Shown piece after piece: positions 10,876 to 55,978 of a stretch of DNA of 61,477 nucleotides. Made by a program: the position numbers and the translations under genes. The stretch covers positions 1 through 61,477 of the forward strand of contig JAZOOK010000082.1 in NCBI GenBank assembly GCA_045654965.1, written 5' to 3'. Each line of letters starts with the position of its first letter. The stretch's first letter is position 1. The notes below the pieces were generated by a model. The model saw nothing but the letters and a program-made list of their open reading frames with translations, was not told where the DNA came from and did not search any database. Origin of the DNA: Candidatus Coprovivens sp. (GTDB lineage: Bacteria; Bacillota_I; Bacilli_A; RF39; UBA660).

Positions 10876-10911
10876 TAAATTTTAATTGTTTAATTTTTTA
10901 GAAATTTAATT

Positions 10912-22330: not shown

Positions 22331-23274
22331 TGGCTATAAAAGAAACTCCTACTAGTGCAAAAACATATTACAAGTTAATGCAACAAACTAGTAAAGACAA
22401 TAAAAATAAAGCTATTGAATTGAAAGAAAAACTTATTGATAAAGTATCAATTCAACACAAAGATATAATGGCTAATAAAGACCTATATTTGACAAAATAT
22501 AGTATAGATTTGGATAAATATAAAGAATTTAAAACTAATACATATAGTACAGGAACTTTTTTAAAAGTAGCTAAAGGAGCTTTTATTAATAGAGCTAATG
22601 ATTATAGTTCTACTAGTGATTTATATGATTTGTATGAATTAGCTAAATGTCAAAAAGAACTATTTGATACTATTAAAACTATAGAACTTAATGATAAACT
22701 TTTAAAATTATCTCTAAAAGAATATACTAACATTCTTAGAATTTATTATACAGAAGTACACAAACAACTTATACTTGAAGGTAATGGTTATGTATTTGGT
22801 AATAATATTGGTTGGATTTGTGTAAATAGATGTTTTAATAGATATAAAAAGAAAATGCTAGATTATTCTGCTACTAAGAAAAAAGAAAAAGAATTAAAAG
22901 AAGCTGGAAAAAAGATTTATAATAAAGAAGAAGAAGAATGGTGTTTAAAACATGGTATTGATTATAAAGCTGAAGATAAAAGAGTTTTTCGTGTAGACGA
23001 ATATTGTTATGAAATACCACTATTAGGATGTACTTTACCAAACGGTAGTGTTTTAAAACTAGAAATAAGTGATTATAGACATTCTTCTTGTAGAGGAATC
23101 ACAAATGACGAACTTATTAGTAAATGTAATAATGATACTAGAGAAATTTGTGAACTACCTGTAGATCTTAGAACTAAGTTAACATTATGTAATAAAGCTG
23201 ATACAATTTTATATACTAAATTTATTAGAAATGAAAATCAAAAATCACATAACTATGCAAAGACTAGTAGGTAA
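22330..23274 (+). CDS. hypothetical tail/neck-module protein (314 aa)
   Basis: TAATG stop-start overlap with the upstream gene. The protein is K/E-rich. Confidence 0.5.
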   Translation: MAIKETPTSAKTYYKLMQQTSKDNKNKAIELKEKLIDKVSIQHKDIMANKDLYLTKYSIDLDKYKEFKTNTYSTGTFLKVAKGAFINRANDYSSTSDLYDLYELAKCQKELFDTIKTIELNDKLLKLSLKEYTNILRIYYTEVHKQLILEGNGYVFGNNIGWICVNRCFNRYKKKMLDYSATKKKEKELKEAGKKIYNKEEEEWCLKHGIDYKAEDKRVFRVDEYCYEIPLLGCTLPNGSVLKLEISDYRHSSCRGITNDELISKCNNDTREICELPVDLRTKLTLCNKADTILYTKFIRNENQKSHNYAKTSR

Positions 23275-23977
23275 AATCGATAACGATTTTAATATTAGTG
23301 AAGCAGATTGGATTCCTAGAGTTGCAGCTTGGGCTATAGATGGACTATCCCAAATGAATGTTTTACCTATGGAATTAAAAAGAAGAACATTAGAAGTTGC
23401 AGATAGAATTGCTACATTTCCTTGTGTAATGAATAGTAAAGAAATAAAAGTATATGATAAACATGGTATAGAAATTCCAGAATATAATAAAGAAGTTTCT
23501 TGTGGTTGTAATAAAAGTAAAAATTATAACTCACAAGAAATTGCTGTTATAGATAATACCAACAAATCTGGAGTTAATTTTATGAATGTAGGAACTGTAG
23601 TTAATCGTAGTAATAGATATTTTGTTTTAGACGGTAATAGCATTGAGCTTAGTTTTAATACAGATGAAATTACTGTAGAAAGTTATGAAATAGCTACTTA
23701 TTATGATGATTATTACGATTGTGAAGTACCTTATATATACGATAATGGTCTTTTACTTGAAGCTTTATCTTGGTATGTAATGTTTAAATATCTTAGTAGA
23801 GGAAGCAAACATCCAGTTTATAGTTTAACTAGTAATAATCCTGTAATAAATCCTTATACTCAATGGCTTGCTTTAAAGCCAAAAGCTGAAATTTCAGTTA
23901 AACTTTCTATTAATAAAAACAGAGATGAGGGTTGGAACAATTTCTTTTATAATAGTACATTTCTACCAAGAAGTTAA
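23231..23977 (+). CDS. hypothetical tail/neck-module protein (248 aa)
   Basis: It overlaps the previous gene by 44 nt. An alternative ATG at 23255 would reduce the overlap to 20 nt. Confidence 0.5.
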   Translation: MKIKNHITMQRLVGKIDNDFNISEADWIPRVAAWAIDGLSQMNVLPMELKRRTLEVADRIATFPCVMNSKEIKVYDKHGIEIPEYNKEVSCGCNKSKNYNSQEIAVIDNTNKSGVNFMNVGTVVNRSNRYFVLDGNSIELSFNTDEITVESYEIATYYDDYYDCEVPYIYDNGLLLEALSWYVMFKYLSRGSKHPVYSLTSNNPVINPYTQWLALKPKAEISVKLSINKNRDEGWNNFFYNSTFLPRS

Positions 23978-23980
23978 ATT

Positions 23981-28366: not shown

Positions 28367-30210
28367 GAAGATATAAATTAAAAAAAGGCGGAAGATGTAG
28401 AGATAGAGCTATTTTTGGAGCTGCTATAGGTGCAGGAGCAACTTTAGCTGCTGCAGGTATACAAGCTGCTGCAACTGCTAGTGCTGCAGAAAAACAAGCT
28501 AAAGCTGCTATAGAAAACGCTAAAACTCAAGCTCAAACTATTAGAGAACAAACTCAAAATAGTAACAGACTTCAACAAGAAGCATTAGCTTTTACTCGTC
28601 AGCAAAATCAAGAAAATAGACAACAACAACAAGATATGCAAATGACTCTTCAAATGATGGCTGGTAAAGATGCTATGAATGATATTATGTCTAGTCAAAA
28701 AGCAGTTCTTAAACTAGGAGGTCAACCTAGAATGTCTATAGCTGGTAGTGTTCCCTTCTACGGGGGAGCTAGTACACCATTTACTGTAACTGATGGAGGA
28801 GGTGCGTTACCTATTGTTACCGATATTGCAGGAAATGGACTATATGAACTTATAGGTAACGATCATGAGCATTATCATAAAGCTCCTGGCGGTAAACATA
28901 AAACTGGAGTTGGTATTAAATTTAACGATGGTACTGTTGTAGAAGGAGAAGGTAATCAGAATACAAATCAAGGAGAACTACTTTATGTAACTCCCGATGA
29001 TGCAATGTTTATTTCTAAACATACTATAGCTGGATTTAATCCAGCTCTTGCTGTTAAAAATGGAGTTCATCCTGAAAAAGCTTTTGCTATTCAAGAAATG
29101 ATTAAAGCAAGTAAAGGTTTGAATGATGATGGCACTAAAAAAAGAAAAAGTATTAAAAAAAGTTTAGGAGGATATAGTGTTTTAAATAATACTGCTAATT
29201 TGACTCAAAATCCTTTTAATAGTAATATAGCTTTAGCAGCCGGAGGTTTTTATCCTACAAATAATAAAGCTAAACTAGGTAAACGGATTAAACTTAAATC
29301 AGGTGGTTTTTGGAATAATTACGGTGGGGCATTTGTAAGTGGTGTAGGTAATTTAATTGGAGGAGGTATTAATTGGCTAGGAACTGGTCTTGCCGGCAAT
29401 ACTTTAAGTAAAGCTTATAATACAGCAGGCGAAACTCTTGCAAATGCCTATAGACAAATGAAAGGAATTGATATGTCAGAACTTAAAATGGAAGATTATC
29501 AAGCTCCTAAAAGTATAGCAGTTATTCGTTCTGCAAATACTAATATAAACCCTCAATTAGAAAGACTTCGTAGAAATGCTAAAGCTGAACAACGAGAAAT
29601 TAATAGAGGTACGATGAGTTCTGCAGCTAGACAACAAAGACTTGCAGCAGTTAATGATAGAATGATGCAAAGAATGAGTGAACAATATTCTTATAAAGAT
29701 CAACTAGATGAACAAATTCGTCAAGGAAATGCTGAAAGAATTACACAAACTGCTCAAGCTAACGCAGATAGAGAAGCTGAAGCTCGTCAAAATTATGCAA
29801 CACAAAGACTTAGTTTGCTTCAATATAATAATAATATTGAAAATTCTAAACTTGCAGGAATTGCTCAAGCTCAAGCTGATGCTCTTACTCAAGGAGCTAC
29901 AGCTAAAGCAACTGCTTTACAAAGCGGTGTAGCTTCTTTAAGTACAGGATTAACTGCTACTGGAGCAGGTTTTGCATCTACTGCTGATGGTATTAGACAA
30001 GAACAGGCTAATTTAGATGCTATAATGTATAGAGCTGATACTGAAAATCAAATAAATTATTTGATTCAAAATCCTGGTATTAGAGGAAATTATGATAGAG
30101 CTCGTAATTTATATAATGTTTATAAAAATAGCGATAACGCTACATTAAAAGGTTACGCTATTCAACTTAACGATGTTTATAAATTTGATAATAATATAGT
30201 TTCTGATTGA
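28363..30210 (+). CDS. Ala/Gln-rich internal (ejection/cargo) protein candidate (615 aa)
   Basis: ATGA overlap with the upstream gene. There are glycine-zipper-like hydrophobic stretches (AIFGAAIGAGATLAAAGIQAAATASAA) and long Q/A/R-rich helices. The gene contains motif copy 6. Confidence 0.4.
   Translation: MRRYKLKKGGRCRDRAIFGAAIGAGATLAAAGIQAAATASAAEKQAKAAIENAKTQAQTIREQTQNSNRLQQEALAFTRQQNQENRQQQQDMQMTLQMMAGKDAMNDIMSSQKAVLKLGGQPRMSIAGSVPFYGGASTPFTVTDGGGALPIVTDIAGNGLYELIGNDHEHYHKAPGGKHKTGVGIKFNDGTVVEGEGNQNTNQGELLYVTPDDAMFISKHTIAGFNPALAVKNGVHPEKAFAIQEMIKASKGLNDDGTKKRKSIKKSLGGYSVLNNTANLTQNPFNSNIALAAGGFYPTNNKAKLGKRIKLKSGGFWNNYGGAFVSGVGNLIGGGINWLGTGLAGNTLSKAYNTAGETLANAYRQMKGIDMSELKMEDYQAPKSIAVIRSANTNINPQLERLRRNAKAEQREINRGTMSSAARQQRLAAVNDRMMQRMSEQYSYKDQLDEQIRQGNAERITQTAQANADREAEARQNYATQRLSLLQYNNNIENSKLAGIAQAQADALTQGATAKATALQSGVASLSTGLTATGAGFASTADGIRQEQANLDAIMYRADTENQINYLIQNPGIRGNYDRARNLYNVYKNSDNATLKGYAIQLNDVYKFDNNIVSD
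28753..28769 (+). repeat. GC-rich motif copy 6 (CCCTTCTACGGGGGAGC)
   Basis: It lies inside 28363-30210 and is read in a different frame, as PFYGGA. Confidence 0.95.
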
Positions 30211-30299
30211 GAAACTTTAATATCTTAAATGGAAGTTCCTATACCCAAGCATAAAACTAAAAAAGATTATAAACCATATTTTAATATAAAGCTAAAGTT

Positions 30300-31436
30300 A
30301 TGGCAGAATTACCTAATATGAGTTTAAAAGCACTACAGTTTAATCCTGTAGCTTTTACTCCTTTTCAATACGAATATAAACCTAATGACTTTTCTATATT
30401 AGAGAGGTCATTAGCACAAAGAGAACAAAGAATGAATGAAGCAGCTGAAGCTAAAGGAGCTATAGATGTAGCTTTAGCTGAAACAGAATTAAAATTACAT
30501 GAAAACGATAAAGAATGGTTTAGAAATTATAAAGAAAATATAAATAATAAAATACAATCTAATATAGATGCGGGTAATTTTGGTGTTGCATTTAGAACTG
30601 CTAAAACTACAGCAGGGGAAGTAGCTAAAGATTCTGCAATTCTTAGTAGAATAGAGGCTAATACCAAATATTTAGAAGATGAAAAAGCTCTTAATGAAAG
30701 AGTTAAATCTGGAGAAATAAGTCAAGATACTAGAGAATGGTGGTTAGCTACACAAGGTTCTTATGAAAATAGAATCACTTATGACGATAAAGGTGTTGCA
30801 ACTTTGAAAGATACAGGACCTTTATATAACGAGATTACTGATTCTGAAATTTGGGCTGCTATTGCAAAACTTATTCCTGCAGAAAAAGGGTCTAGTAGTG
30901 GTCAAGGAAGTACTACTAATGTTGATGGTACAGGTAGCGGTTGGCAATCAGGTAAATCTTATGAAAAATTATCTAAAGAAAGACTTCAAGCAGCTGTACT
31001 AGCATATATGAGTGATTCTACTAATCAAGCTAAATTTAAACAAAAGTATGATGTTGAAAAATTCAAAGCTGAAAAATTACAACAAGAATATAATTCTACT
31101 TCAGATGAAAATAGACGTAAAGAAATAGAAGTAGAATTACAAAATTCTGGTATGTTAGGAGCTAATAAACAAATTATAAGTTATGAGGAATATCTAAATA
31201 ATAAATTAAAAAATAGTCCTTGGGGTGATTTGTTATCTTATAATTATGTTACTACAACTAGTGGAAGTGTCACTGATAATCAAAGTACTAAAACTGGTAA
31301 TAGAACACCTTCTACGTTTGAGACTATATTTAGATCAATTACAGAAAGGGAGGTTACAACAAATGAAGGTCCTGATACAGAAATGAAAGTAACCGATGGA
31401 TTAAATACTCCTACAGCTACTGTAACTCCTAATTAA
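30300..31436 (+). CDS. hypothetical virion protein (378 aa)
   Basis: ATG ORF, co-directional, helical and K/E-rich. Confidence 0.5.
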   Translation: MAELPNMSLKALQFNPVAFTPFQYEYKPNDFSILERSLAQREQRMNEAAEAKGAIDVALAETELKLHENDKEWFRNYKENINNKIQSNIDAGNFGVAFRTAKTTAGEVAKDSAILSRIEANTKYLEDEKALNERVKSGEISQDTREWWLATQGSYENRITYDDKGVATLKDTGPLYNEITDSEIWAAIAKLIPAEKGSSSGQGSTTNVDGTGSGWQSGKSYEKLSKERLQAAVLAYMSDSTNQAKFKQKYDVEKFKAEKLQQEYNSTSDENRRKEIEVELQNSGMLGANKQIISYEEYLNNKLKNSPWGDLLSYNYVTTTSGSVTDNQSTKTGNRTPSTFETIFRSITEREVTTNEGPDTEMKVTDGLNTPTATVTPN

Positions 31437-31457
31437 ATAACAATTAAATAAAAAACT

Positions 31458-33233
31458 ATGAAATACGATTTTGGCAATTATATATATTATAATCCTAACA
31501 ATATTAATGGTGAACCTGAACCATTTAATAAACAAAAAAGAGATAGTCTTATAGCTAATAATAAATACGCTGAAGCTGTAAATTATTCAAGACTATTTCA
31601 TCCTAAAGATCCTAAAAAAGCAGCTAAATATGATTTAGATATAGCTAATCTAGAACGTACTGCTAAAATATATGAAGCTAAATTTCAACGTTTAGGTAAA
31701 GATAAAGATTTAGTACAATTTGTAGATTTACTATATCAAGGAAATTTATCTAATTATGCTAAAGGTAATTCTTATATAGATAATTATAATAATAAAATTA
31801 AAGATTTAAGCTCTGATAAAAACAATAATGTACATATAACTTTTAAACCTAAAAAACAATATGCTTTTGGTGCTGAATGGTTAGATTGGCTAGCTGCGGA
31901 TAATGAAGAATATAATATAGATGTTTTTTATAAAAATACTGGTTTAAGTAGAGCTCAACTTGAATCATCAGGAGTTAAGTTTATTGATGAAGAAGATGGA
32001 AGTACTACTATAAAAGTTAATAAAGGGCATGAGTTGTTTAATAAAATTATAATGGGAGTACCTATGGATAAACCAGTAGTACCTACTATAGGAGGTATTC
32101 CTTTCTATGGAGACTTTTCTAGTGATACACCTGAGATAAATTTATTTCGTAAGAAATGGATGGATGGTGATAAAGATAGAGAACTTGTTTATAATTTACA
32201 GAAAACGGTAAAAGATGCTCAAGAAAAAAGAGATAACATCTTTAAAAAGTATGAACCTGAAGTTGTGCAAAAAAGAGGTTTTACTATGCGTCTAGTTACT
32301 CCAGAATTATTACAAGCAGAACAAGCCGCAATTAATGGAGAACTAACACAATTTCAATATAATACACTTAAAAATCTTATTTTTGATGAAGTAAATAGAG
32401 AACTTGTTACAAGACCTTTTGGTAAGTACGATAAAGTTTATACTAATAGGTTTAATGAAAGAGGTGACGAAACATTTAGAGAAGCTCCTGTAGATGAACT
32501 AGTTAAACTTCAAAATAAATTAAGAACTAATATTGATGATTTAGAATATAGCGTATATAATAATGGAGTAGAAGAAGGATTAATGATTACTTATAAAGGA
32601 AAAGAAAAAGATAAAAGTAAATTACCTACAAACTTTGATGCTGATTTAGAAAATCATATAGCTGATGTTTCTTTTTCTGTATTTATTCCAGGTATGGCAG
32701 CTAATTTTATAAATTCTGCTGTAGGTCTAGATCCTAATTATAGAGCTAGTAAAGAATTATTAGATATGGCTAATTATGGAATTACTCATGAATTAGAAGA
32801 TGGTACAGTTTTACATGCCGATAATAATGGAAGAATTTTTGCAAAAGGTGTAGAAATTGATAGAAATGAAGCTTTAAGACTTATAAATAAAAACTTTGTA
32901 GTTGAAGATGCAAAACGTCAATTTCTTTATGATTCTGTAAATAAAGATAGTAATATTATTGATGAAGAAGCTTATGACCTTAAAGCTAAAAAACAAGCAA
33001 TTGCTTATGCTGCAGAAACTTATCCTGAAGTAAACTTGTTTTATGATTATGATAATACTTCTGAATATGACAATATTGAAGATTATGTTTTTTCTAAACA
33101 AATAGCTGGTGAAATACAAGAACCTGTAGCAGATAAAATGCCTTATGATGTATATAACGTATATACTGAACTATTTGATGTATATAGAAGAATAATGACT
33201 GGATTAACAAACCATAAAAAAATATATAACTAA
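31458..33233 (+). CDS. hypothetical virion protein (591 aa)
   Basis: ATG ORF whose stop overlaps the start of the 2781-aa gene (TAATG). Confidence 0.5.
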   Translation: MKYDFGNYIYYNPNNINGEPEPFNKQKRDSLIANNKYAEAVNYSRLFHPKDPKKAAKYDLDIANLERTAKIYEAKFQRLGKDKDLVQFVDLLYQGNLSNYAKGNSYIDNYNNKIKDLSSDKNNNVHITFKPKKQYAFGAEWLDWLAADNEEYNIDVFYKNTGLSRAQLESSGVKFIDEEDGSTTIKVNKGHELFNKIIMGVPMDKPVVPTIGGIPFYGDFSSDTPEINLFRKKWMDGDKDRELVYNLQKTVKDAQEKRDNIFKKYEPEVVQKRGFTMRLVTPELLQAEQAAINGELTQFQYNTLKNLIFDEVNRELVTRPFGKYDKVYTNRFNERGDETFREAPVDELVKLQNKLRTNIDDLEYSVYNNGVEEGLMITYKGKEKDKSKLPTNFDADLENHIADVSFSVFIPGMAANFINSAVGLDPNYRASKELLDMANYGITHELEDGTVLHADNNGRIFAKGVEIDRNEALRLINKNFVVEDAKRQFLYDSVNKDSNIIDEEAYDLKAKKQAIAYAAETYPEVNLFYDYDNTSEYDNIEDYVFSKQIAGEIQEPVADKMPYDVYNVYTELFDVYRRIMTGLTNHKKIYN

Positions 33234-36200
33234 TGACTACTAACGATATTTCAAAACAAGGTAATACAAAAACTCCTATTAATCTGAATACTATATCTCA
33301 ACTATATAATAGGAGAAAAAATCCTTATGATGAATTAGCTACTAGAGCTCTTGTTGAAGGATGGACTATTGACGCTAAAGAAGCTGCAAAATATAATAAA
33401 GCTGGACTTAATTATAATCCAAATATTCTTCCTAAACTAGATAAAGCTTTAGCTGAATCACAAGGAGCTGGAGAAAAATTATGGAATTCTCTTAAACAAA
33501 CTCTTTATAGTGAAATAGCTCTTGGTACAGTTAAAGGTTTTGCAGATTTATTTGATGTTATAACAGGAGAAGTATTTAAACCTAATAATGATTACTCTAA
33601 TCCAGTTAGTAGATATTTAGAAGAAGCTCAAGAAAATTTCAGACTTAATAATCCAATTCATGTTGACCCTAATATAAATATAAGTAATGGAGGTTTAGTG
33701 GATGTAGGTTGGTGGGCTAGCAACTTTCCAAGTGTTGCTAGTTCATTAACTTTACTTATTCCTTCTACCGGTGTAACAAAAGGTCTATCTTTATTAGGAA
33801 AAGGTCTTAAAACAGGTAAAGCAGTAAGTTACACTAGAAAAGCTTTAACTGGAGCTACAAAGGTACGTAATATAGAACAAGCTAATAGACTTAATAAATT
33901 TGCTAAATGGGCTAATAAAGAATCTACTATTATTGGAGCTAATAGACTATTTGAATCAGGTCTTACAGCAACAGCTATGCGTACTCTAGAAAATTATCAA
34001 GAATCTCGTCAAGTTTATAACGATATGTATAAAGAAGCTAGTAATTCTTTATATAATATGACAAATGAAGAATATCAAGATTTTTTAGAAAGAAATAAAG
34101 ATGAATTAGCTACTTATAATATAGATCTTAATGATAGAGAATCTGTAGCTAGAGCTATAGCTAATCATGCAGCAAATAAAACATTTATGATAGACTATAG
34201 TAATATCTTATTCGATGTTGCTCAAGTTTATGCTTTAGGTAATCCTTTAAAACTTACTAAAAATTTAAGACAAACTGCTAAAATTAGAAAAGCAGAAAGA
34301 TTGGCTCGTAGAAATAGAGGTAAAACTGCTGAAGAAATAGCTAAATTAGATGCTGCTGAAACTTTTGGAAAAAAAATTAAAAATTGGACTAGTGACCATA
34401 TTGCAGATGGTAGAATTTTAGCAGCTAATGCTACAGAAGGTATAGAAGAAGGCGTGAACTATATAGCTCAACAAGAAGGTATGAATTATGGTAGAGTCAT
34501 GCTTGACCCTAAAATGAATCCTGAAACAGCTTTTAGTAGTAGACTTCAATCTTATTTAAGTTCTCCTGAACTTTACGATGCTGCTTTTTGGGGAGTAATG
34601 GGAGGTGTAGTATTTCAAGGATTAGGTAGTCAATTTAATAGACTTTCCAATGCAATACAAGGTAAATGGAAAGAGTCAAAAGCTAAAAAGAAAGGTGAAA
34701 AAACAAAAGAAGACGTAGCTACTAATTGGAGAGAAAAATTTGAACTTCCTGAAAATAAACGACGTATAGCCGAAATAAATGCTAGAATTGCAGATGAAGA
34801 TAAATTATATGAACGTCTTTCTCAAATAGAAGAAGGTAAAGATCCATTTAATAGAGACGCTACTGATCCTAGTAAACAAGCAAATATTACTTCTGATATA
34901 GAAAAACAAGTAGCTAGAGATAGAGCTATAGATGAGTATATTGTAAATACTACTTTTAGAGCTTTAGAAACAGGTAATTATGATATGCTAAAATCATATC
35001 TACAAGATGAAAATGTTCGTAAAGTTTTAGCAAAAAAAGGAGTAATAGACACTTCTTCTATAACTAGTGTAGATAAATTAATAAATCGAATGGAAGAAGT
35101 AGAACAAATTTATAACGATAATCTTATTGCTATAGATGGCATATCTCAATCTTTTGAAAATGTTCCTTTTGAATATATACAAATTATTGCTAGAGATAAC
35201 GCTTTAGCTCAAATTCAACAACAAAGACTAAATGAGCAATTAGGAGCTTATGAAGAATCTGCTGAAAATAACGCTAGACGATTTGGAGCAAATCTAACTC
35301 AAGGTATCGATTATAAATCTGCTGTAGAATTAGTTGTAGCTGCTAGAAGATTAGGAACTCTAAGAGCTAGCAAAAAAGCTATAGAAGAAGATAAAGAATA
35401 TGCTAAATCTTTAGATGGACAAAATAGATTAAAAGACATAGATAATGAAATTAAATTAATAAATGAAAATTTAATTAATGAAAGTTGGAGTAGCAATAGT
35501 GAGTATAATTCTTTTAGCAATAGATTTGCTAGACTTATATGGGCTAATGCTATTTCAACAAAAGCATATTATGATGAACGTAATCAATATAAACATGATG
35601 ATGCTGCTTCTGAATATTTAGATTATTTAGATGCTCTTAGTAGAAGAGATTTTAATTATATACAGAGTGTGGCTAATGTTAATTTTGATATTACAGATGA
35701 AGAAATAGTTGAACTTTTCGGAGATGAAATATCATCAACAGGAATGTATGATAAACTTTCTCAAGATTTAAATACAGCTTTTGATATAGAAACAGGTCTA
35801 GATAAAAAAGCTGCACCTTTAAATGAAGATTATCAAAATATAGCAGCTTTGAAATTAGCTAAACTTACACAACAAGCTAGAATAGCAAATACAGATGAAA
35901 GTATTCTAACTAAAATTAATGAACTTCATAATTACATGAATGAAGCTAGAAGAAAAGCTATAGAAGAATCTGAATCTATTATTTTCGATATTGGTAAAAA
36001 ATATGGAAGAGTTGGTGTAATAGGTTATATTTTTAATAATGAATCTATGCCTAATATAACTTCTGAAGATAAAACTAAATTAGATTCTGCATTAGAAGTA
36101 TTAAATCTTACTACTGATTCTAATAGAATACTTGGAGAAAATCTTAAACATGCTCTTATATTAGGAGAACTTTATGGTGAAGCTCAAACACAAGAAGAAA

Positions 36201-39200
36201 AAGAATTAAATTCTGCACTTGAAAATTCGATTTCAGCAGATAATTCTGAACAGACAACCAATAATCCACAAGAAACACAATCATCAAACACAGGGCAAAT
36301 ATCAAGTCCACAAGGTCAAACATCATCGCAATCGCCCACAATTTCAACACAATCTCAAAAAGTTGATATAAGTACAAATATTGACGGAACTATATATTTT
36401 GATACTAATGTAGGAGAAAATGAAGTAGCTTATGACTATATAGAACAAGATAACGGAGATATAGTATTAAGTTTTCCTAAAGAAGTAGTATTTCCTAGTA
36501 ATTGGTTAAAAAATCAAGCATTATACGAAAATTATAATGAAAGTTATGATTCTGCAAAAGATACTATAGAATATCCTATATTACACAAAGATGAAAATGG
36601 TAATATAACTGTTAAACAAAAAGGGCGTATTATATATAATAATACCAACAACCCTTCTACGGGGGAGCAAGTTAAACCTGATACATCTAATTCTCAACCA
36701 ACTCCTATTCTTGCACCAAAGTCTACTCCAGTTCAAGAATCTACTAAAGAACGAGAAGATGTTCCGCCAGTATCGAATTTAGATGAAATTATTTTACAAA
36801 TAGAAGATAATATACAAAATGAAGCTAAAGCTATATTTGCTACTAGAGATGAAAGTAAAAATGTAGAAGAAGTAATACAAGAAATTGAAAATACATTAAA
36901 AGAAAATCATAAAAATGATGATAATCAAAAATATGTTCAAAATGCTATAAATAGATCTATTAGAATTCTTAAAGCTAGAGCTTTAAGAAAAGGTTTGATT
37001 AAAGCTGCTGCAGAAGTATTACATAGTGATGTTACAGAAATGCCTAATGGTAAATATGATTTTTCTGAAGAATACAAAAAACATGTAGTAGAAATGATCG
37101 AACAGTATTGCAGAGAAAGTGGACTTCGTAAAATAAATGGTAAATATTATATTAATTTAGAAGATGTTCTTCGTCGAATAAATAATTTATTTAATGAAGA
37201 CATGGCTAAATTAATGTTTGGAACAATAAATGCTTATCTTAATATATCAGAATCTAAAGAACATTTTGTAGTTATGGATAATACTACAAATCCTCAAGAA
37301 TTTTTAGATAATGTTAGAAAAACAGAAGAACAAAGATTAAAAGAACGTATAGGAAATAGAGAAGATAAAAATCATAGAGTTTCTATTGACCATTTATTTG
37401 AAAATCCTAGTGAATCTTTTTTAAAAACTTTTGATAGTATAAATAAAGGCGATAAACTTTCTATTAAATTAGAAGCTGGTGAAGTAAAATTACTTAAAAA
37501 TGGAGTAATTGTAGGAACATTACCTAAACCTTTGATTAACTCTAAAACTGGAGCATTTTATAAATATAATAATGGTTGGAGAACTGAAGTTTGGAAAGAA
37601 GGAGATAAAGTCGTAAGTAATTTAAGTTCTATATTTGAAACTATTCTTACAGAAGATAGCGAAGTTTGTAATTTTATAAATGATGCTATTACTGAACTTA
37701 ATTATGGTAATCCAAATAAAAAAAGAAAAGAAGAATTAATCGAAGCTATTTATGAAAAATTAAATACTGCTTTCGGAATTATAGATAATAACATAGTAAG
37801 TGAAAATAAAAGTAAAGAAGAAGTAATAAGTTATTTAGCTAAATTATGGAAATATATAAATGGAGCGCAATATAGTAAAGATGAAAGAAATGCTTGGATT
37901 TCAGATAGTTTAGAAACTTGGTTTGAAAAAGTATATGATTCGTATAGTTCTATAAATAATCTTATCGATGAATTATCTAACAATCCTACTAGTATAGAAG
38001 TTATAGTAGAAAATATAACTAGTGGAGAGCTAATTAGAATTGTAGATGATGAAACTAGAGGTGTAGGAGATAATTATAATAATTTTACTCAAGTAAATGA
38101 AGCTCTAGCCAATCCTAATGAAGCTATTTTGGGAATAGTAGATCCTTCTACTTCTAATGAACTTATAACTACAAATGGAAAAACTATAGTGCATAATCAA
38201 CTTGGACAATCAGGCACTCCTCATGTAGTAATTCCTAATAAAAATGGAATAGATAATTATGTAATAGGAACAGCTGTAAGATTTAATGATAAAAATTTAA
38301 CAGGAGATGTAAATATTATAATCGATTCTATAAAAAAAGAATTAATTTATAGAATAGAAAAACATATAGTTAATAATAACGGAAATTATCAAGAACTTTA
38401 TGATTTTTTACATGATTTATTAGATTCTAGTGCTAAAGGAAATAATACCGGATTATTGTACGGTGTAGCATTTACAAAACAAGCTAAAGATAGTTTAGGA
38501 TTTTTAATAAGTGTTGCTAGTAAAAATAGAGATGGGGCTTCTCTAAACGTTAAAAATGTAGTAGGTAAAAAATTATTTAGTTATAAACGTACTGGAAGTA
38601 CTGAATTTATTCAAGGAGATTTAAATAAACTAGAAGATCAAGTTATCTTTAAAGAGCTATTACTAGAAATACTAAATCAAACTAAATTTAATATTTCTAA
38701 AAACTATATACTTCCTGGTTATAAACCTAATGGTTTTGCAATTAAAGATGATACTGGTAAATTTTATATTAGTATTCCTAATTCTGCAGAACCTAGTAAT
38801 CCTACTAATTTTACTTATGATAATTTTCAAGATTTTGTATTTAAAGCCGGTATTATAAGGGTTAATACTAAAATAGAAAATAATAGTAATTATAAAAGAA
38901 AAGGCTTAAATCAAGCAGCTAATCAAATATTAGAAGTTAGTTTAAATAGAACAACCACCTCCCCCGTAGAAGAACGTTCTACAACTAATACTTCTTCTAA
39001 TTCAGAAGTAGAAAGTATTCTTAAAGATAATAGTGTTAAAGATAAAGCTACAACTATTATTGAAACTTTAGCAGAAAAAGAAATGCCTAAAGAAACGTTA
39101 ACAAAACTAAACTCTTTGCATTTATTACCTGAGAATATTATATTTGATGAAAACTTTAATACAAGAAATGATAAAGGTTATTGGGTTGGAAATAATGCAG

Positions 39201-41578
39201 CTTATAGACCTAATACAAAAGAAATAATTCTTGGGCATCGTTGGATAGATATGTTTAACGAAGAAGGAGAATTTAGTGGAGCAGAACCTGGAGTTTATAG
39301 AAAACAAGCTATTCGTAAACTGATTCACGAACAATTACATCATAAACTAGCTGAAAAAAATAAGGCATCTTATCTTGCTAAAATGGAAGCTATATATGAT
39401 GAATTTGTAAAATCTTTAGAAACTCAAGATGATGCTATTAAACAATCTATAAGTAAATATATTTTTAGTAAATATGTTGAAAACGGTAGAAAAGATATTG
39501 CAATAGAAGAATTTTTTGTTGAAAGTTTAACTAGTGAAGAACTTGTAAATTATCTTAATAGTGTTGAAGCTACATTTGAAAAGAAAAAACTTAGTAATAA
39601 TCTTTGGCAAAAGATTCTTAAACTACTTAGTGATATATTTGGTTGGGAAGTAAAAACTGGTTCTCTTCGTGAAAAACAATTATATGCTTTACAAGGTAGT
39701 TTAAGTAATATTAGAAAAGCCTTAAATACTAAAGCTGAAACATCAACTGATTCTAAAGTTCAATTAACTTTATTTGATGATGAATTTGAAAAAACAAATG
39801 ATTTATTAAACAATATAGATAAAGAAGTTTCTGAAAAAGATGGAATTAAAACAACTAAATTAAAAGGAATAAAAGTATCTACAAAAAGCGGTAGACAACA
39901 ATATAATCCTGTAGTTATACCTTTTGATACTATTGATATTGCTTCTTTATCAGAAACATATATAGAATCTCAAGAAGATATAGATAAAATTATATTAAAT
40001 GAAGTAAAAGAATCATATAATAAAATTACAGGAGAAATAACTATTGTTGAAAAAGACGGTACTAGCATTCCTCAAACTGTTATATTTAAACGTAACCCTT
40101 TAAATGAAATTTCTTTATATAAGAATACAGAAACTAATAATACTAATGTAGAAATTATTGAAGAAACTTCAAATGTTCAATCAGCAGAAATTAATGATTC
40201 TATTATAGATATAGATATAGATAATTTTTTAAATGATACGTTTAATGATATTAACTCTGATGCAATTAGAGGTAGTGAAATTACAGAATCTTCAAATTCT
40301 TATACTCCAGAAATGCAAGAAATAAAAGCTAAAGCTATAGCTAATGGAACTTTTATGAAAGCTCCTAATGGTAATCCTACTAATCTTAATGAAAGACAAT
40401 GGTTAATTGTTAGAACTAAACCTTTTATCGATTGGTTTGGTAATTGGGAAACTATTGCTAAATTAAAATCTATTGAAAATGATTATGAAATAAAAGAAAA
40501 TAATGAAACTCCACCTCATGATGATTCTAAAGGGTATGATATATTCTATAAAGGAGAAAAAATAGGTACAGTAGCATTATCTAATTTTAATAATAATCTA
40601 ACTATAAGAGGTATAAATTTAGATATTAAATTTAAAGGAAAAGGTATTGGAAAAAATTTTTATAAATGGTTAGCTTATACAGCTTATAAAGATAATGGAA
40701 CGTTATACAGCGATAACGTATATGATTCTACTATTAGTACTGATGCTCAAAATGTTTGGAATTCTTTAATAAAAGAAGGAATAGCGACAATTGATGAATA
40801 TTCTGGAGGTTATCATACCAGTCTTCCTGAAACTAGTAAAGTACTTGATGAAAATGGCGAACCTTTAGTTGTTTATCATGGTGGTAGAAAGCCAACTATT
40901 TTTGATACTTCTGGTAAACAAAGTGGAGGTGCTGGTATTAAAAAAGGTATAAAAGGTTCTTATTTTATTACTACAAAAGAACAAGCATGGTATTATGCAA
41001 ATATAGCAGAATATAAACAAGGAGATGCTTTATTTGAATTGTCTCAAGAACTTCAACTTGAAGTAGAAAATGGTGAAATAACTGAAGAACAAGCAAATAC
41101 TATTTTGAATAAAAATCAAATAGGTGTTACTTCATATTTTCTTAATATTAGAAATCCTAAAATCAATGAATATAAATACAATGTTGTGGATTCAAAAATT
41201 GATAAAGATGGACATATATTTAGAAAAGAAAGTCGAGAAGTAGAAGAATTAAGTTCTATAACTCCTATAGATTTTGATGGTCAAAATATAAGAATATATC
41301 ATCCTGAATATAAGTCATTTGCATATACAATAAATGATTACAAAACATATAAGCAAAAAGATGAAATAGAATGGGTTGCAACTAATCCTAATCAAATTAA
41401 ATCTGCTACTTCTAATACAGAATTTGGTGCTACTGATAATATTTATCATAGTAGTGTAACTGAAGCTCCAACTAAACATCCGTCTATTTATGATTTTGTG
41501 CAAACATTACCGACCGATATTCAAGCCAAATTCCTAAATTCGGTAAACTCTGGTGAAGTTTCGATAGCTTGTAAATAG
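33233..41578 (+). CDS. giant polyvalent cargo protein (2781 aa) with HExxH, GNAT-like and ART-like modules
   Basis: Uninterrupted 8.3-kb ORF. The recognisable modules are listed as separate features below. It lies directly upstream of the RNAP-like giant gene. Confidence 0.7.
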   Translation: MTTNDISKQGNTKTPINLNTISQLYNRRKNPYDELATRALVEGWTIDAKEAAKYNKAGLNYNPNILPKLDKALAESQGAGEKLWNSLKQTLYSEIALGTVKGFADLFDVITGEVFKPNNDYSNPVSRYLEEAQENFRLNNPIHVDPNINISNGGLVDVGWWASNFPSVASSLTLLIPSTGVTKGLSLLGKGLKTGKAVSYTRKALTGATKVRNIEQANRLNKFAKWANKESTIIGANRLFESGLTATAMRTLENYQESRQVYNDMYKEASNSLYNMTNEEYQDFLERNKDELATYNIDLNDRESVARAIANHAANKTFMIDYSNILFDVAQVYALGNPLKLTKNLRQTAKIRKAERLARRNRGKTAEEIAKLDAAETFGKKIKNWTSDHIADGRILAANATEGIEEGVNYIAQQEGMNYGRVMLDPKMNPETAFSSRLQSYLSSPELYDAAFWGVMGGVVFQGLGSQFNRLSNAIQGKWKESKAKKKGEKTKEDVATNWREKFELPENKRRIAEINARIADEDKLYERLSQIEEGKDPFNRDATDPSKQANITSDIEKQVARDRAIDEYIVNTTFRALETGNYDMLKSYLQDENVRKVLAKKGVIDTSSITSVDKLINRMEEVEQIYNDNLIAIDGISQSFENVPFEYIQIIARDNALAQIQQQRLNEQLGAYEESAENNARRFGANLTQGIDYKSAVELVVAARRLGTLRASKKAIEEDKEYAKSLDGQNRLKDIDNEIKLINENLINESWSSNSEYNSFSNRFARLIWANAISTKAYYDERNQYKHDDAASEYLDYLDALSRRDFNYIQSVANVNFDITDEEIVELFGDEISSTGMYDKLSQDLNTAFDIETGLDKKAAPLNEDYQNIAALKLAKLTQQARIANTDESILTKINELHNYMNEARRKAIEESESIIFDIGKKYGRVGVIGYIFNNESMPNITSEDKTKLDSALEVLNLTTDSNRILGENLKHALILGELYGEAQTQEEKELNSALENSISADNSEQTTNNPQETQSSNTGQISSPQGQTSSQSPTISTQSQKVDISTNIDGTIYFDTNVGENEVAYDYIEQDNGDIVLSFPKEVVFPSNWLKNQALYENYNESYDSAKDTIEYPILHKDENGNITVKQKGRIIYNNTNNPSTGEQVKPDTSNSQPTPILAPKSTPVQESTKEREDVPPVSNLDEIILQIEDNIQNEAKAIFATRDESKNVEEVIQEIENTLKENHKNDDNQKYVQNAINRSIRILKARALRKGLIKAAAEVLHSDVTEMPNGKYDFSEEYKKHVVEMIEQYCRESGLRKINGKYYINLEDVLRRINNLFNEDMAKLMFGTINAYLNISESKEHFVVMDNTTNPQEFLDNVRKTEEQRLKERIGNREDKNHRVSIDHLFENPSESFLKTFDSINKGDKLSIKLEAGEVKLLKNGVIVGTLPKPLINSKTGAFYKYNNGWRTEVWKEGDKVVSNLSSIFETILTEDSEVCNFINDAITELNYGNPNKKRKEELIEAIYEKLNTAFGIIDNNIVSENKSKEEVISYLAKLWKYINGAQYSKDERNAWISDSLETWFEKVYDSYSSINNLIDELSNNPTSIEVIVENITSGELIRIVDDETRGVGDNYNNFTQVNEALANPNEAILGIVDPSTSNELITTNGKTIVHNQLGQSGTPHVVIPNKNGIDNYVIGTAVRFNDKNLTGDVNIIIDSIKKELIYRIEKHIVNNNGNYQELYDFLHDLLDSSAKGNNTGLLYGVAFTKQAKDSLGFLISVASKNRDGASLNVKNVVGKKLFSYKRTGSTEFIQGDLNKLEDQVIFKELLLEILNQTKFNISKNYILPGYKPNGFAIKDDTGKFYISIPNSAEPSNPTNFTYDNFQDFVFKAGIIRVNTKIENNSNYKRKGLNQAANQILEVSLNRTTTSPVEERSTTNTSSNSEVESILKDNSVKDKATTIIETLAEKEMPKETLTKLNSLHLLPENIIFDENFNTRNDKGYWVGNNAAYRPNTKEIILGHRWIDMFNEEGEFSGAEPGVYRKQAIRKLIHEQLHHKLAEKNKASYLAKMEAIYDEFVKSLETQDDAIKQSISKYIFSKYVENGRKDIAIEEFFVESLTSEELVNYLNSVEATFEKKKLSNNLWQKILKLLSDIFGWEVKTGSLREKQLYALQGSLSNIRKALNTKAETSTDSKVQLTLFDDEFEKTNDLLNNIDKEVSEKDGIKTTKLKGIKVSTKSGRQQYNPVVIPFDTIDIASLSETYIESQEDIDKIILNEVKESYNKITGEITIVEKDGTSIPQTVIFKRNPLNEISLYKNTETNNTNVEIIEETSNVQSAEINDSIIDIDIDNFLNDTFNDINSDAIRGSEITESSNSYTPEMQEIKAKAIANGTFMKAPNGNPTNLNERQWLIVRTKPFIDWFGNWETIAKLKSIENDYEIKENNETPPHDDSKGYDIFYKGEKIGTVALSNFNNNLTIRGINLDIKFKGKGIGKNFYKWLAYTAYKDNGTLYSDNVYDSTISTDAQNVWNSLIKEGIATIDEYSGGYHTSLPETSKVLDENGEPLVVYHGGRKPTIFDTSGKQSGGAGIKKGIKGSYFITTKEQAWYYANIAEYKQGDALFELSQELQLEVENGEITEEQANTILNKNQIGVTSYFLNIRNPKINEYKYNVVDSKIDKDGHIFRKESREVEELSSITPIDFDGQNIRIYHPEYKSFAYTINDYKTYKQKDEIEWVATNPNQIKSATSNTEFGATDNIYHSSVTEAPTKHPSIYDFVQTLPTDIQAKFLNSVNSGEVSIACK
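36230..36365 (+). other. Q/S/T-rich low-complexity linker inside the 2781-aa protein
   Basis: The translation is ...SADNSEQTTNNPQETQSSNTGQISSPQGQTSSQSPTISTQSQK..., and the DNA is locally richer in C/A than its flanks. Confidence 0.7.
36652..36668 (+). repeat. GC-rich motif copy 7 (CCCTTCTACGGGGGAGC)
   Basis: It lies inside the 2781-aa gene and is read as NPSTGE. The upstream flank is CCAACAA. Confidence 0.95.
38958..38974 (-). repeat. GC-rich motif copy 8, reverse orientation (TTCTTCTACGGGGGAGG on the minus strand)
   Basis: It lies inside the 2781-aa gene and is read antisense to the motif, as TSPVEE. Confidence 0.9.
39326..39340 (+). other. HExxH zinc-metallopeptidase signature (HEQLH, aa 2032-2036)
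   Basis: The codons cac gaa caa tta cat are in frame, in the context RKLIHEQLHHKLAEK. Confidence 0.6.
40532..40800 (+). other. GNAT-like acetyltransferase module
   Basis: 'IGTVALSNF..LTIRGINLDIKFKGKGIGKNFYKWLAYTAYKDNG' fits GNAT motif A (beta4, then R/Q/K-x-x-G-x-G/A, then alpha3). Confidence 0.5.
40841..41452 (+). other. ART-like (H-Y-E type) module of the kind found in phage/ICE polyvalent proteins
   Basis: The elements are 'VLDENGEPLVVYHGG..IFD', 'GSYFITTKEQAWYYA', 'SYFLNIRNP' and 'EIEWVATNPNQIKSATSNTEFG..NIYHS'. They match my recollection of the recurrent ...DENGEPLVVYHGT...GxYF(T/S)...QIKSA... module. Confidence 0.5.
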
Positions 41579-41649
41579 TAAGTACACCTTACAAATAAAC
41601 ATGGCTAAAATCAATAAAAATAATTTTATAAAACTAAACATATTATATT

Positions 41650-44600
41650 ATGAGTAAAAATTGTATTTTAACTGTTAATGACAGTGAAGTTTTTAAGGCT
41701 CTTAAAAAAAGATTTGGTACTAATGAAACAGAAGCCTTTGCAAAATGGGTTGCTGTAGTTGAGAATGGAGAATTTACTCCTGCTTTTCAAGAATGGCAAA
41801 AAGCAAAACGTAAAACAGAAGAAATTGTTACATTAGATACTGCTAATACAAGAACTATTGTAAATGATATAATAGCTTATTATAACACTTTATATCCTGA
41901 TGGTAATACTACTATATTACATAAAAAAAATAATAAAAGTGTTAAATATAATAGTACAGCAGATAGAAGTTTTTGTCAAAAAATAGTAGCTGTTGAAATA
42001 CTTGATATATTTAGAAATGAGCATTACACAAAAAATAATGCTAAATCTTTTACAAAACAAGATTATATAAATGAAGTTAGAAGTCGTTTTTTTAAGCGAC
42101 TTCTAAACCGTTTTAATATAACTAATGCAGACATAAAACCTTATATTTCAAAAAATGTTAATAGATTTACTAATCTTGTTAAATTTTATATAGAACAAGG
42201 TGTAGATAAACAATCTGCTATGAACTTAGCTATGTCTGTTGAAGCAGTTAATTTTGTTAGAGAAAAATTAGGTAAAAATATAAATATACAAGATACCAAT
42301 TTTTTAGCTGTAATAGAAGAAATGCACGATTTTAATATTAATGAAAATGGTGTTAAAATTGCAAATGCTTTTTTTGAAGAAATATTTTATAATAAAAAAC
42401 TTGAAGAAATTCGTAGAGAAAATAAAGATGAATTTAATACAGCTGAAGAAGATAAAGCTCAAGAAAATGAAAATGTTAATTTAGGAGAATCTACTACAGA
42501 AAGTGACGATATTACAAATGACGAATTTGATATGTCGTTTAGAGTATTCGATAGCCATGACGGACAATATGCCACTTTTACAACTCATATAGGAGGTAAT
42601 ATTAGAAGTTATTTAAATTGTTTAAGAAAACTTAAAGGAACAGGTCTTGTAAATGGACAGCGTTATTATGATACCGATAACGCTATTGGTATAGCTGAAG
42701 CTATGGATGCTACGACTTGTGCTAAAGTTTTATATACTCAAGCTGATTTTACAAACGTTTCTTCTATGATTACTTCTATTAGAAGAATTGCAGAAACTGT
42801 TTCAGGATTTGAAGGATTTATTCAATTTGCAGAAGATTTAGAAAATAATTATGATTTTGCATATGAAGTTTATACAACTTTTGGTAAAATGGTTATTTCT
42901 AAAACAGAAACTTATATAGAAAATGGAGAACGAAAAGTAAGAATAAGTAATACTACAGCAGATCCTGTAAGTGCTTTAAGATTTGAATATATAAATCAAT
43001 TTAGAACTTCTGTAACAAATGATATTCATGATTTTGTTGCTAATGAAGTTAATCAGCTAACTACAGAATTGAAGAAAATAAAAGATGCTGTAGCTAAAGG
43101 AAAAATATATGATGCTAAAACTAAAAAATTAAAGAATTATAATAGAGAAACTAATTATAAAGAAGATAAAGCTAAATTAGTAGCAAGTCTTGTAAAAAGT
43201 TTTAAAAGATATTTGCCAAGTATAGAACAATCTGCTATTTTATCATATATAAACAATACTAAAATAAATGGTACAATAGACGAACTAGATAATATAAATG
43301 TTTTAATTAATCATTTGAGTAATTTAGTACAAGGAGCTAAATCTAGTTATGCAGTATATTCTAGCAGACTTATAGAAGCATCTTCTATTAATAGAGAAAA
43401 TAACCTTTTACGACAAAGACAAATAGAGGGAGAATTTATTTCAGCTTCTAAATTTAAAGACCCTAATAGCGTATGGTCAGAATCTTATATTACAAATAAT
43501 GCTACTTCTGCTGTTATACAATTGGCTAATATTTTAGTTCCTTATAGTGTAATAAAAACAGAATTAAATAGTAGAAACGCTAAAGGTAATCTATCTTCTG
43601 ATGTCATAAATAGTAATATGATAACTAATTTTATGACAATGTTAGAACATAGATTAAATTATACAAATGAAGAAAATACTCCTCTTAAAAATTATGGAGC
43701 TTATAAATTTAGAAGTAAACAATATGATTTGTCTAATATTCTAGTAGAAAAAGAAAAAAATGGAGTTATAATTAATTATGGCTTATTTAAATTAGAAAAC
43801 GGTAAATATATTCCTACTAATTATGCTACCGATTTAATTAAAATGACTCTGTTTAATGGAATTTCTGATTTTGGAAATGGTAAATCAGCAGTATATTCAG
43901 AAATGTCTAAAGGAGATTATGTTACCACTGCAATGATTAACTTTTGGAAATCTAATCATATAAGTAATAATAGCAATATAGAATTTGCTGATTATTTTAT
44001 GCGTATTCCATCAGATGCTCCAAAAAACTTTGTAATGTCTGCTCCAAAATATAGTTTAACTTATAAACATGGGGGTAAGATTATTAATTTTTGGAAAATA
44101 GATAATGAAAGTCAAATGAATTCTAGAATTAGAGATTTGATAAATAATATTCCTCATAATACCGATTATGAAGAAAGTCTTCTAGATTCTCAAAATATTT
44201 CTATTAAACAAGCTACTAGAATACTTACTGGAAGAACTTTAGATAATATAAATATTTCAAATAAAAAAGCTCTTTATAAAAATTCTAATTCTTTAATTGG
44301 TTACCTTAATGTTGCAGTAGATGGAGTTAATTTTATAATAAAAGGTACGTTAAATGATAATAAAACAGCTTTAACTAATGTTACATTACATGGTGTTATC
44401 GATAATTTTGGAAACGCCGTAGCTTATGGTTCAGAATTACATGCTGGACTTACTGATTATTATAAAAGACAGCTAATTTCAGGTAAAATTAAATTATCTG
44501 ATGGTAGTACAGTTAAAAGAAGTATTAATAAAGAACATCCTATTTTTCAACAATTTTATGCTGTATTTAAACAAGAAATGCAAAATGCAGCTACAGCAAT

Positions 44601-55152: not shown

Positions 55153-55193
55153 TATTTATAATAAACTTAATATTAATATTAATAATAAAACTT

Positions 55194-55976: not shown

Positions 55977-55978
55977 TT

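Follow-up and report, generated by a model that had tools for sequence, protein, structure and literature searches.

The 61,477-nt contig JAZOOK010000082.1 (GenBank assembly GCA_045654965.1, filed under Candidatus Coprovivens sp.), referred to here in its whole length as the window, carries at positions 33233 to 41578 of the forward strand one intact open reading frame (ORF) of 2781 aa, which begins with an ATG (translation code 11) that overlaps the stop codon of the upstream ORF. Judged by sequence and position, the gene is an orthologue of crAssphage gp45 and phi14:2 gp65, a zincin virion protein associated with the phage RNA polymerase (RNAP). Near its C-terminus it bears a GNAT-fold module and an ADP-ribosyltransferase (ART) module of the ART-PolyVal family, and the stretch holding both is replaced in a near-identical strain, which points to a probable injected, host-manipulating effector of the polyvalent-protein kind. 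The protein consists of a conserved N-terminal domain, a long variable middle, a zincin-like domain, an "effector slot" and a tail of ~40 residues ending in Cys-Lys. The main features, with relatives denoted by P (proteins) and L (loci) numbers, are as follows:

33233 to 41578, forward strand: whole gene, 2781-aa orthologue of crAssphage gp45 / phi14:2 gp65 (RNAP-associated zincin virion protein)
33290 to 35242, forward strand: conserved N-terminal domain, aa ~20-670, common to gp45 orthologues across Intestiviridae at 27-40% identity
36242 to 36361, forward strand: linker, aa 1004-1043, with 82% of residues Q, S, T, N or P
39089 to 39724, forward strand: zincin-like domain of gluzincin or metallopeptidase (MPTase) type, aa ~1953-2164, with HEQLH and the invariant E2092/E2093
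40316 to 40447, forward strand: "pep" motif, aa 2362-2405, running to FMKAPNGNPTNLNERQWLIVRTKPFIDWFGNW, a near-invariant helical element and the left anchor of the swapped cassette
40448 to 41363, forward strand: strain-variable cassette, with no detectable DNA similarity to scaffold L008 except a 53-nt island at 40837-40889
40475 to 40822, forward strand: module with a minimal GNAT fold, aa ~2415-2530, lying as an insert between pep and ART
40835 to 41422, forward strand: ART-PolyVal domain, aa 2535-2730, matching PF18760, with a near-invariant NPNQIKSAT
41450 to 41575, forward strand: conserved C-terminal tail, aa 2740-2781, running to LPTDIQAKFLNSVNSGEVSIACK, with a penultimate Cys
41650 to 55107, forward strand: catalytic subunit of the virion RNAP in fusion with a further subunit, 4485 aa, orthologue of crAssphage gp44 by synteny

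Orthology and gene neighbourhood

A tblastn search of GenBank phages matched the protein to KP06_gp45 of crAssphage (Carjivirus communis), labelled "putative RNAP associated protein fused to zincin protease", with similarity spanning aa 7-2145, from the N-terminus through the zincin. The nearest published genomes belong to the Obtuvirinae (Intestiviridae), namely cr271_1 (pig), ctcc615 (mouse) and cr8_1 (human), and the cr271_1 orthologue is 34% identical to the window protein in an alignment reaching aa 2780. The identity range given above for the N-terminal ~650 residues covers 28 records, including crAss002, a cultured phage of Bacteroides, and a B. cellulosilyticus phage; crAssphage itself stands at 28%. 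Membership in the gp45/gp65 family is indicated by homology of the N-terminal domain, the zincin and the tail together with the position directly upstream of the RNAP gene, and the link to phi14:2 gp65 is taken from the literature (bioRxiv 10.1101/2020.03.07.982082). The window protein and crAssphage gp45 (1957 aa) have in common the N-terminal domain, HExxH, EEF[LI]VES, the tail (...LP..QQ..FA.L...G.IS.SC[MKR]) and the place upstream of the RNAP gene; they differ in that the window protein has a longer middle region and a pep-GNAT-ART slot of about 370 aa, whereas in crAssphage gp45 nothing but an acidic linker separates the zincin from the tail. An exact look-up of the 2781-aa sequence found no record of it, the whole protein gave a single match to PDB sequences (a spurious antibody), and a hydropathy scan produced no convincing transmembrane helix (maximum Kyte-Doolittle value 1.07).

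The motifs that the initial annotation had quoted from this ORF are all at the positions given there, and its Q/S/T-rich linker is real. Its mention of two motif copies in opposite orientations could not be supported, since a repeat search within the ORF gave only short, imperfect pairs, inverted and direct (16-37 nt, with arm complementarity or identity to the reference copy of 66-95%), which we judge to be ordinary for DNA of 27% GC (guanine plus cytosine).

The ORF immediately downstream (4485 aa) contains DFDID at aa 1760 (nt 46927-46941), which is the catalytic motif of the phi14:2 virion RNAP gp66 (bioRxiv 10.1101/2020.03.07.982082), and the gene order across the region is that of crAssphage gp50-gp44; the motif and the synteny bear out the earlier placement of a virion RNAP gene beside the cargo gene. 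The crAssphage gp44 label reads "RNAP catalytic subunit fused to unknown RNAP subunit", and the cr271_1 and cr8_1 counterparts of the 4485-aa ORF are mis-annotated in GenBank as "nuclear pore complex-like protein". Synteny with crAssphage places the cargo gene between the genes at muzzle and cargo positions and the RNAP gene. Pfam searches of seven neighbouring ORFs (window 22330-33230 and 55128-56734) gave no match at E<=1e-3, so the muzzle and cargo assignments rely on crAssphage synteny. The cargo proteins of the window lineage are very divergent; the Pfam crAss cargo families crAss_CARG1 and crAss_CARGO2 do match genes in L006, a crAss-like contig described below.

Virions of phi14:2 contain gp65, gp66 and gp67, and the orthologues of these proteins are virion components too, with a zincin-like domain in gp65 and its orthologues (bioRxiv 10.1101/2020.03.07.982082), and virions of PhicrAss001 carry three RNAP-associated proteins as cargo (PMC10172136). 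From orthology to these proteins we reasonably infer that the window protein, too, is packaged in the virion.

The zincin-like, GNAT and ART-PolyVal modules

The initial annotation had read the ORF as a combination of a zincin motif with a GNAT-like and an ART-like module, and this is supported as far as it can be tested in silico. In the zincin-like domain, HEQLH occupies aa 2032-2036 (nt 39326-39340) on a predicted helix, and E2092/E2093 (nt 39506-39511) lie on a later predicted helix. HExxH would be expected by chance 0.027 times in this His-poor protein. The pattern HE[QSGNKR][LI]H is invariant in every orthologue or fragment covering the site, as is EEF[LIF]V[ED][ST], about 60 residues further downstream, in all covering orthologues, and orthologues are annotated as zincin proteases. 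An AlphaFold model of the domain (predicted local distance difference test, pLDDT, 78; predicted template-modelling score, pTM, 0.80) predicts short strands at residues 35-37, 55-58 and 63-66 ahead of the HExxH helix (87-107, HEQLH at 98-102), followed by inserted helices and then the helix of the Glu pair (153-166, the pair at 158-159). Three strands, an HExxH helix and a later Glu helix constitute the MPTase core (PMC5512222). A profile of the domain found no match among PDB sequences. The best zincin match of the model in Foldseek was anthrax lethal factor at a weak E=0.41, and other weak matches included selecase, abylysin, TTHA0227 and ERAP2; among the lethal factor entries is 4dv8, with which Iyer et al. 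had linked the N4 MPTase (PMC5512222). We regard this list from a predicted model as suggestive at most, and the assignment of the domain as zincin-like as having good, but not conclusive, support.

The conserved positions of the two C-terminal modules are:

40628 to 40672 (aa 2466-2480), forward strand: KFKGKGIGKNFYKWL, GNAT motif-A segment
40841 to 40885 (from aa 2537), forward strand: VLDENGEPLVVYHGG, ART module motif
40877 to 40879, forward strand: H2549, ART triad
40955 to 40975 (from aa 2575), forward strand: GSYFITT, ART module motif
40961 to 40963, forward strand: Y2577, ART triad
41138 to 41158 (from aa 2636), forward strand: FLNIRNP, ART module motif
41363 to 41377 (from aa 2711), forward strand: EIEWV, ART module motif
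41369 to 41371, forward strand: E2713, ART triad
41390 to 41407 (from aa 2720), forward strand: NQIKSA, ART module motif

The module between pep and ART is a true GNAT, an identity to which three independent lines lead: fold matches by Foldseek, profile matches in the PDB, and a link from the family profile to Pfam GNATs. With the C-terminal model as the query of a Foldseek search of the PDB, all of the top 50 matches were GNAT domains, with E from 6e-5 and probabilities of 0.98-1.00 for 49 of them and 0.91 for one, VipF; the template-modelling (TM) score normalised to target length was at least 0.5 for the minimal GNATs YhhK, PanZ and 1y9k (about 0.53 for YhhK and PanZ; maximum 0.54). A profile of eight members of the GNAT family matched 26 PDB sequences, 24 of them GNATs. 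The same profile matched 889 proteins (121 at E<=1e-10) when run against 1.84 billion representatives, and eight of ten small stand-alone proteins among these match Pfam Acetyltransf_1, all eight at or above the 20.7-bit cut-off; the GNAT of the orthologue P0235, at 26.1 bits, is likewise above it. Motif A of the window reads K-G-K-G-I-G-K (K2468, G2469, G2471 and G2473). The G-K-G-x-G-K loop is invariant in an alignment of eight family sequences. Against the general GNAT pattern R/Q-x-x-G-x-G/A, the first position of the motif is K in the window and R in all seven aligned relatives. The module first noted as GNAT-like is thus of GNAT fold, and its G-x-G-x-G-K pyrophosphate loop is intact, though as a single sequence it is sub-threshold in Pfam, and it would be predicted to carry out acyl-CoA-dependent acyl transfer.

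The ART-like module is an ART-PolyVal domain, with H, Y and E at the conserved positions of the family. Its match to PF18760 scores 42.3 bits (E=1.6e-10), above the gathering threshold of 31.2, and extends over profile positions 1-137 of 140; the orthologues P0198 and P0235 reach 69.5 and 64.1 bits. A database search with aa 2340-2781 returned 549 relatives, and nearly all among the matches listed were already annotated with PF18760. Of 83 aligned sequences, 79 have H at position 2549; at position 2577, 47 have Y, 24 have F and 5 have W, and at position 2713, 37 have E, 8 have D and 7 have Q. The motifs SKVVDENGEPLVVYH, FLNI[RK]NP and NPNQIKSA are near-invariant in the family. The AlphaFold model of aa 2355-2781 (pLDDT 85.7, pTM 0.80) puts H2549, Y2577 and E2713 on predicted strands 193-198, 222-225 and 356-362, respectively. 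ART-PolyVal has been described with H on strand 1, Y on strand 2 and D on strand 5, and as allied to Tox-ART-HYD2 (PMC5512222, Iyer et al.). The window domain also holds a lineage-specific insert of a helical hairpin and beta structure. Structure matches in BFVD to proteins named PolyVal ADP-ribosyltransferase reached E=2.8e-6; further BFVD matches are the proteins of cr271_1, cr116_1 and cr130_1, which bear the UniProt name "ART-PolyVal-like domain-containing protein". By its sequence, the domain is a candidate for NAD+-dependent ADP-ribosyl transfer.

We rejected membership in the T4 Alt / VIP2 family, given the H-Y-E triad and PF18760 as the sole match, with no Alt-type Pfam model. The analogy with T4 Alt in the initial annotation thus stands in one respect, the proposed logic of a virion-carried ART that is delivered with the DNA and modifies host proteins at the start of infection, and falls in another, the clade: T4 Alt is a single-domain internal head protein of the R-S-E (Alt/VIP2) clade, whereas the window protein is multidomain with an H-Y-E ART-PolyVal, of the clade H-Y-[EDQ] (PMC5512222).

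A variable slot and a strain-level replacement

The slot lies between the zincin and the C-terminal Cys tail, and its contents differ among gp45 orthologues:

empty: crAssphage gp45, cr8_1
pep and ART: ctcc615, cr271_1, P0122
GNAT only: P0211
pep, GNAT and ART: the window protein and P0198 (53% identity, same synteny as the window)
pep, GNAT and ART, preceded by a stretch matching the N-termini of P0006 and P0016: P0235

The replacement between strains was seen in L008, a metagenomic scaffold of 10,142 nt that matches window 31410-40447 at 94.4% and window 41364-41622 at 94.6% DNA identity. In the interval, L008 9037-9883 takes the place of window 40448-41363, and the 53-nt island within the cassette encodes SKV.DENGEPLVVYHG. 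Protein identities between L008 and the window are 89-96% for the backbone, 96% for pep and 94% for the tail; they fall to 22.5% for the GNAT and 33.7% for the ART. The ART allele of L008 is without the helical-hairpin insert of the window allele and reads H-W-Q at the triad positions, and by its sequence may have a different activity or specificity. The gp45 gene of L008 is called in two pieces (1119 aa and 1505 aa), a split that may be a frameshift or an assembly error. Scans of IMG/VR and JGI metagenomes for more strain-level relatives gave distant pep matches only, so that L008 is the sole comparison behind the swap. The cassette shows no foreign base composition (GC 0.265 against 0.261 in the flanks) and thus no compositional sign of recent foreign origin.

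The two modules also have separate affinities. The window ART core is 90-91% identical to those of P0001-P0003, whose N-termini or inserts differ, and the window GNAT shares 64% identity with the GNAT of P0228, which contains MuF_C and whose gene lies close to one for a P22-type portal. These comparisons indicate that the GNAT and ART alleles assort independently and are exchanged at conserved anchors, much as C-terminal toxin domains are replaced in polymorphic toxins. The apparent anchors flanking the alleles are WFGNW, VVDENGEPLVVYH and NPNQIKSAT plus the tail.

The left anchor, pep (FMKAPNG..NL.ERQWLQVRT..F..WFGDW), is an element of ~45 residues found ahead of ART-PolyVal in all but two of the 120 homologues listed (118). 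It lies outside every Pfam model, and its only match was PHROG 30335, a 2900-position family without known function; pep looks like a conserved element, so far undescribed, at the N-terminal side of one subfamily of ART-PolyVal. The gap between pep and ART is a variable insertion point, empty in P0002, occupied by a GNAT in 10 of the 120 listed, and filled by other, unrelated inserts in P0001, P0011, P0016 and P0074. The pep-GNAT-ART triad is found in 33 of 151 proteins tabulated, many of them 2000-7400 aa long, and many of the giants that bear it have a different (HEAFH-type) HExxH motif or a MuF/portal context. Phage records with pep include OR791114.1 (10422-10514), OQ927986.1 (20811-20903), MT774390.1 (51287-51436) and PQ571263.1 (54318-54461). 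Bacteroides phage BF1-TP2 is among the bearers of pep, and labels of pep-bearing proteins are DarB-like antirestriction (Pseudoalteromonas phage), methyltransferase (Shewanella phage) and RNA-polymerase subunit (cr85_1).

The tail (...LP..QQ..FA.L...G.IS.SC[MKRQ]-end) closes all gp45 orthologues, with or without ART, and was also seen in L001-L004 and P0124-P0193; Cys stands at position -2 in 54 of 65 aligned sequences. The Cys tail could be a packaging, docking or disulfide signal. It also ends stand-alone pep-ART genes next to giant genes in L005 (8306-9427, 373 aa) and L014 (1223-2491, 422 aa). These consist of a short N-terminus, pep, ART and the gp45-type tail, and lie directly upstream of giant genes (4586 aa and at least 2117 aa, respectively), in the position that the RNAP gene holds in the window; they are preceded by non-structural genes (Thy1 and RNA ligase in the one, thioredoxin in the other). 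The ART core of L014 is 90% identical to that of the window. Unrelated giant polyvalent proteins with the pep-GNAT-ART triad have other short tails, with Cys 1-5 residues from the end (KCIAL, HCMY, YCIGI, HCRI and YCR).

In L006 (Logan SRR17241683_7071, a 95-kb crAss-like contig), a PDDEXK_1 domain lies upstream of a pep+ART fragment, in frame. L006 3035-11002 is a TAG-recoded giant gene: the gene calls at 4652-11002 share one frame broken only by seven in-frame TAG codons, and further TAG codons follow in the upstream direction until a TAA is reached at 3032. P0028 (333 aa, pep+ART) is the last fragment of this gene, and recoded or partial giant genes may similarly be the origin of some short ART-PolyVal entries in databases.

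Candidate roles after ejection

A zincin, a GNAT and an ART in one ORF among genes at virion positions place the protein among the polyvalent proteins, which have been defined by unrelated enzymatic domains in one giant polypeptide encoded among virion genes (PMC5512222). Also in common are an HExxH with a downstream Glu as in their MPTases, a PF18760 ART (H-Y-[ED]), a GNAT adjoining the ART, and an association with virion RNAP (PMC5512222). Known examples comprise N4-like virion RNAP proteins fused to MPTase and ART, such as that of Roseovarius Plymouth podovirus 1, and gammaproteobacterial phage proteins with a GNAT adjoining the ART; two RimI-like GNAT families are described in the same paper (PMC5512222). 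The window differs in that its RNAP is of the two-DPBB (double-psi beta-barrel) crAss type and is encoded by a separate neighbouring gene, whereas N4-like proteins have a T7-like RNAP in the same chain, and in that its GNAT is a minimal insert between the non-Pfam pep and the ART core.

Our preferred reading, to which we give a probability of roughly 0.6, is that of a virion-packaged polyvalent protein whose ART and GNAT modify host macromolecules after ejection into a Bacteroidales cell, while the zincin clips the polyprotein or regulates the RNAP complex. The protein would be packed into the capsid together with the RNAP, would enter the Bacteroidales host by ejection, either before the DNA or along with it, and would refold there. 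The ART would use NAD+ to ADP-ribosylate, and the GNAT acyl-CoA to acylate, host macromolecules, in the service of host take-over or counter-defence. The zincin would either free the modules by clipping the polyprotein or regulate the RNAP complex; for the zincin of such proteins, a part in processing or regulation has been argued more often than that of a protease directed at the host (PMC5512222, PMC13434306). The Cys tail is possibly a packaging or docking signal. The pattern of an exchangeable cassette fits diversifying selection on an arms-race effector.

Several observations weigh against this reading. The evidence for the swap is one metagenomic scaffold with a right flank of only 259 nt, and an assembly chimera is possible. 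Unlike polyvalent MPTases, the window zincin matches no Pfam zincin or MPTase model at E<=1, and Foldseek found no PDB structure below E=0.1 for its model. The window GNAT alone scores 15.9-18.0 bits in Pfam, below the 20.7-bit cut-off, and its motif A has K where R or Q is usual. The ART profile detected no related solved structure among PDB sequences, and the 50 Foldseek PDB matches shown for the C-terminal model all fell on the GNAT part, masking any to the ART. In the searchable literature neither this protein nor any ART-PolyVal member has been characterised experimentally, the family being mentioned in two papers and as a Pfam entry only. Lastly, direct virion proteomics exist only for distant relatives.

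More tentatively, and at somewhat less than even odds, we propose that crAss-like phages and other podophages with giant virion proteins have a dedicated effector slot, exchangeable by recombination, at the C-terminus of the RNAP-associated cargo protein, in which warheads (ART, GNAT, PD-(D/E)xK nuclease and others) are shuffled even between ~94% identical strains. The slot may be anchored by pep, by the VVDENGEPLVVYH island and by NPNQIKSAT with the Cys tail. Such a slot would resemble polymorphic toxins, in which close relatives combine a conserved scaffold with divergent, recombination-swapped C-terminal cassettes flanked by conserved sequence. It differs from them in that delivery would be by phage ejection rather than a secretion system, in that the cassette is internal and followed by the tail, and in that no immunity gene is apparent.

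The modules might instead act on the phage's own virion RNAP, on gp45 or on the incoming DNA, timing or shutting off early transcription or protecting the genome, a reading that we regard as unlikely. The gene adjoins the RNAP gene and is annotated as RNAP-associated, and there are precedents: an HExxH-containing C-terminal domain of the N4 virion RNAP binds and auto-inhibits the polymerase (PMC13434306), and the phi14:2 RNAP is packaged in a self-inhibited state and needs activation (bioRxiv 10.1101/2020.03.07.982082). The stand-alone ART-plus-tail genes directly upstream of giant genes, in the place of the RNAP gene, point the same way. However, many gp45 orthologues, that of crAssphage included, are without both modules, which are thus not needed for core RNAP function; the pep-GNAT-ART triad is also present in MuF-type and other polyvalent proteins outside an RNAP context; and an exchange between strains of alleles that have diverged so far would be expected more of arms-race effectors aimed at the host.

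Quite unlikely, in our estimate, is a GNAT that serves as a CoA- or acyl-CoA-binding regulatory insertion gating the ART, as in PanZ, rather than as an independent acetyltransferase. The module does sit at the variable insertion point between pep and the ART core, the pTM of 0.80 for the 427-residue model suggests one packed unit, PanZ (4crz) and YhhK, both minimal GNATs, are among the best structural matches, and the family does not conserve the Tyr that usually acts as general acid (Y or R at the aligned position). Yet P0211 has a GNAT without an ART, so the module can stand alone, related small GNATs exist as free-standing genes, and the ART alleles of many relatives function without the insert.

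It is very unlikely that the two modules are remnants without catalytic activity, serving a cargo or ejection protein as structural filler or for binding: the searchable literature gives no experimental activity for any ART-PolyVal member, the family varies at triad positions two (F, W or H for Y) and three (Q, V or I for E), L008 has the H-W-Q variant and the window motif A starts with K rather than R or Q, but the window keeps the full H-Y-E triad on the expected strands, the G-K-G-x-G-K loop does not vary, and the very strong conservation of SKVVDENGEPLVVYH, FLNI[RK]NP and NPNQIKSA across hundreds of proteins argues for purifying selection on an active site.

The combination of modules is not unique, and its ingredients have been described: the zincin in crAss gp45/gp65, ART-PolyVal itself, GNAT next to ART in phage polyvalent proteins (reported in 2017), and the association of MPTase, ART and virion RNAP in N4-like phages (PMC5512222). 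The ART of the cr271_1 orthologue had already been annotated automatically by UniProt. What is added here, and is modestly novel, is a strain-variable effector slot on the RNAP-associated cargo protein of crAss-like phages. In the searchable literature we found no link between Crassvirales cargo and polyvalent proteins and no mention of ART or GNAT there: no paper was retrieved on Crassvirales together with polyvalent proteins, "crAss" occurs 0 times in PMC5512222, the main text of Yutin et al. 2021 contains no polyvalent, ART or GNAT terms, and the papers retrieved for crAss-like phages with ADP-ribosyltransferase were, by title and abstract, reviews and unrelated papers only. The finding also connects the crAss "transcription block" with the concept of polyvalent proteins, which arose from work on N4-like phages and conjugative elements.

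Among the phages of the human gut, Crassvirales are the most abundant, and to our knowledge almost nothing is known of their injected cargo beyond early transcription. If delivered and active, the cassette would be the first candidate pair of host-modifying effectors for this order, with H2549, Y2577, E2713 and the G2469/G2471/G2473 loop as residues for mutation. The strain-level replacement and the range of slot states suggest a hot spot of phage-host conflict, which could help explain strain-specific host range. If the exchangeable-slot model is true, the slot would be a phage-ejected counterpart of polymorphic toxins and could contribute to strain-level host range and counter-defence in these viruses.

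Two compositional features of the region were also recorded. The codon bias of the ORF is extreme (7.8% GC at third codon positions against 27.7% overall). GC skew is positive across the window, falls from about 56 kb and is clearly negative from 58 kb, a change that coincides with the switch from forward- to reverse-strand ORFs at about 56.9 kb.

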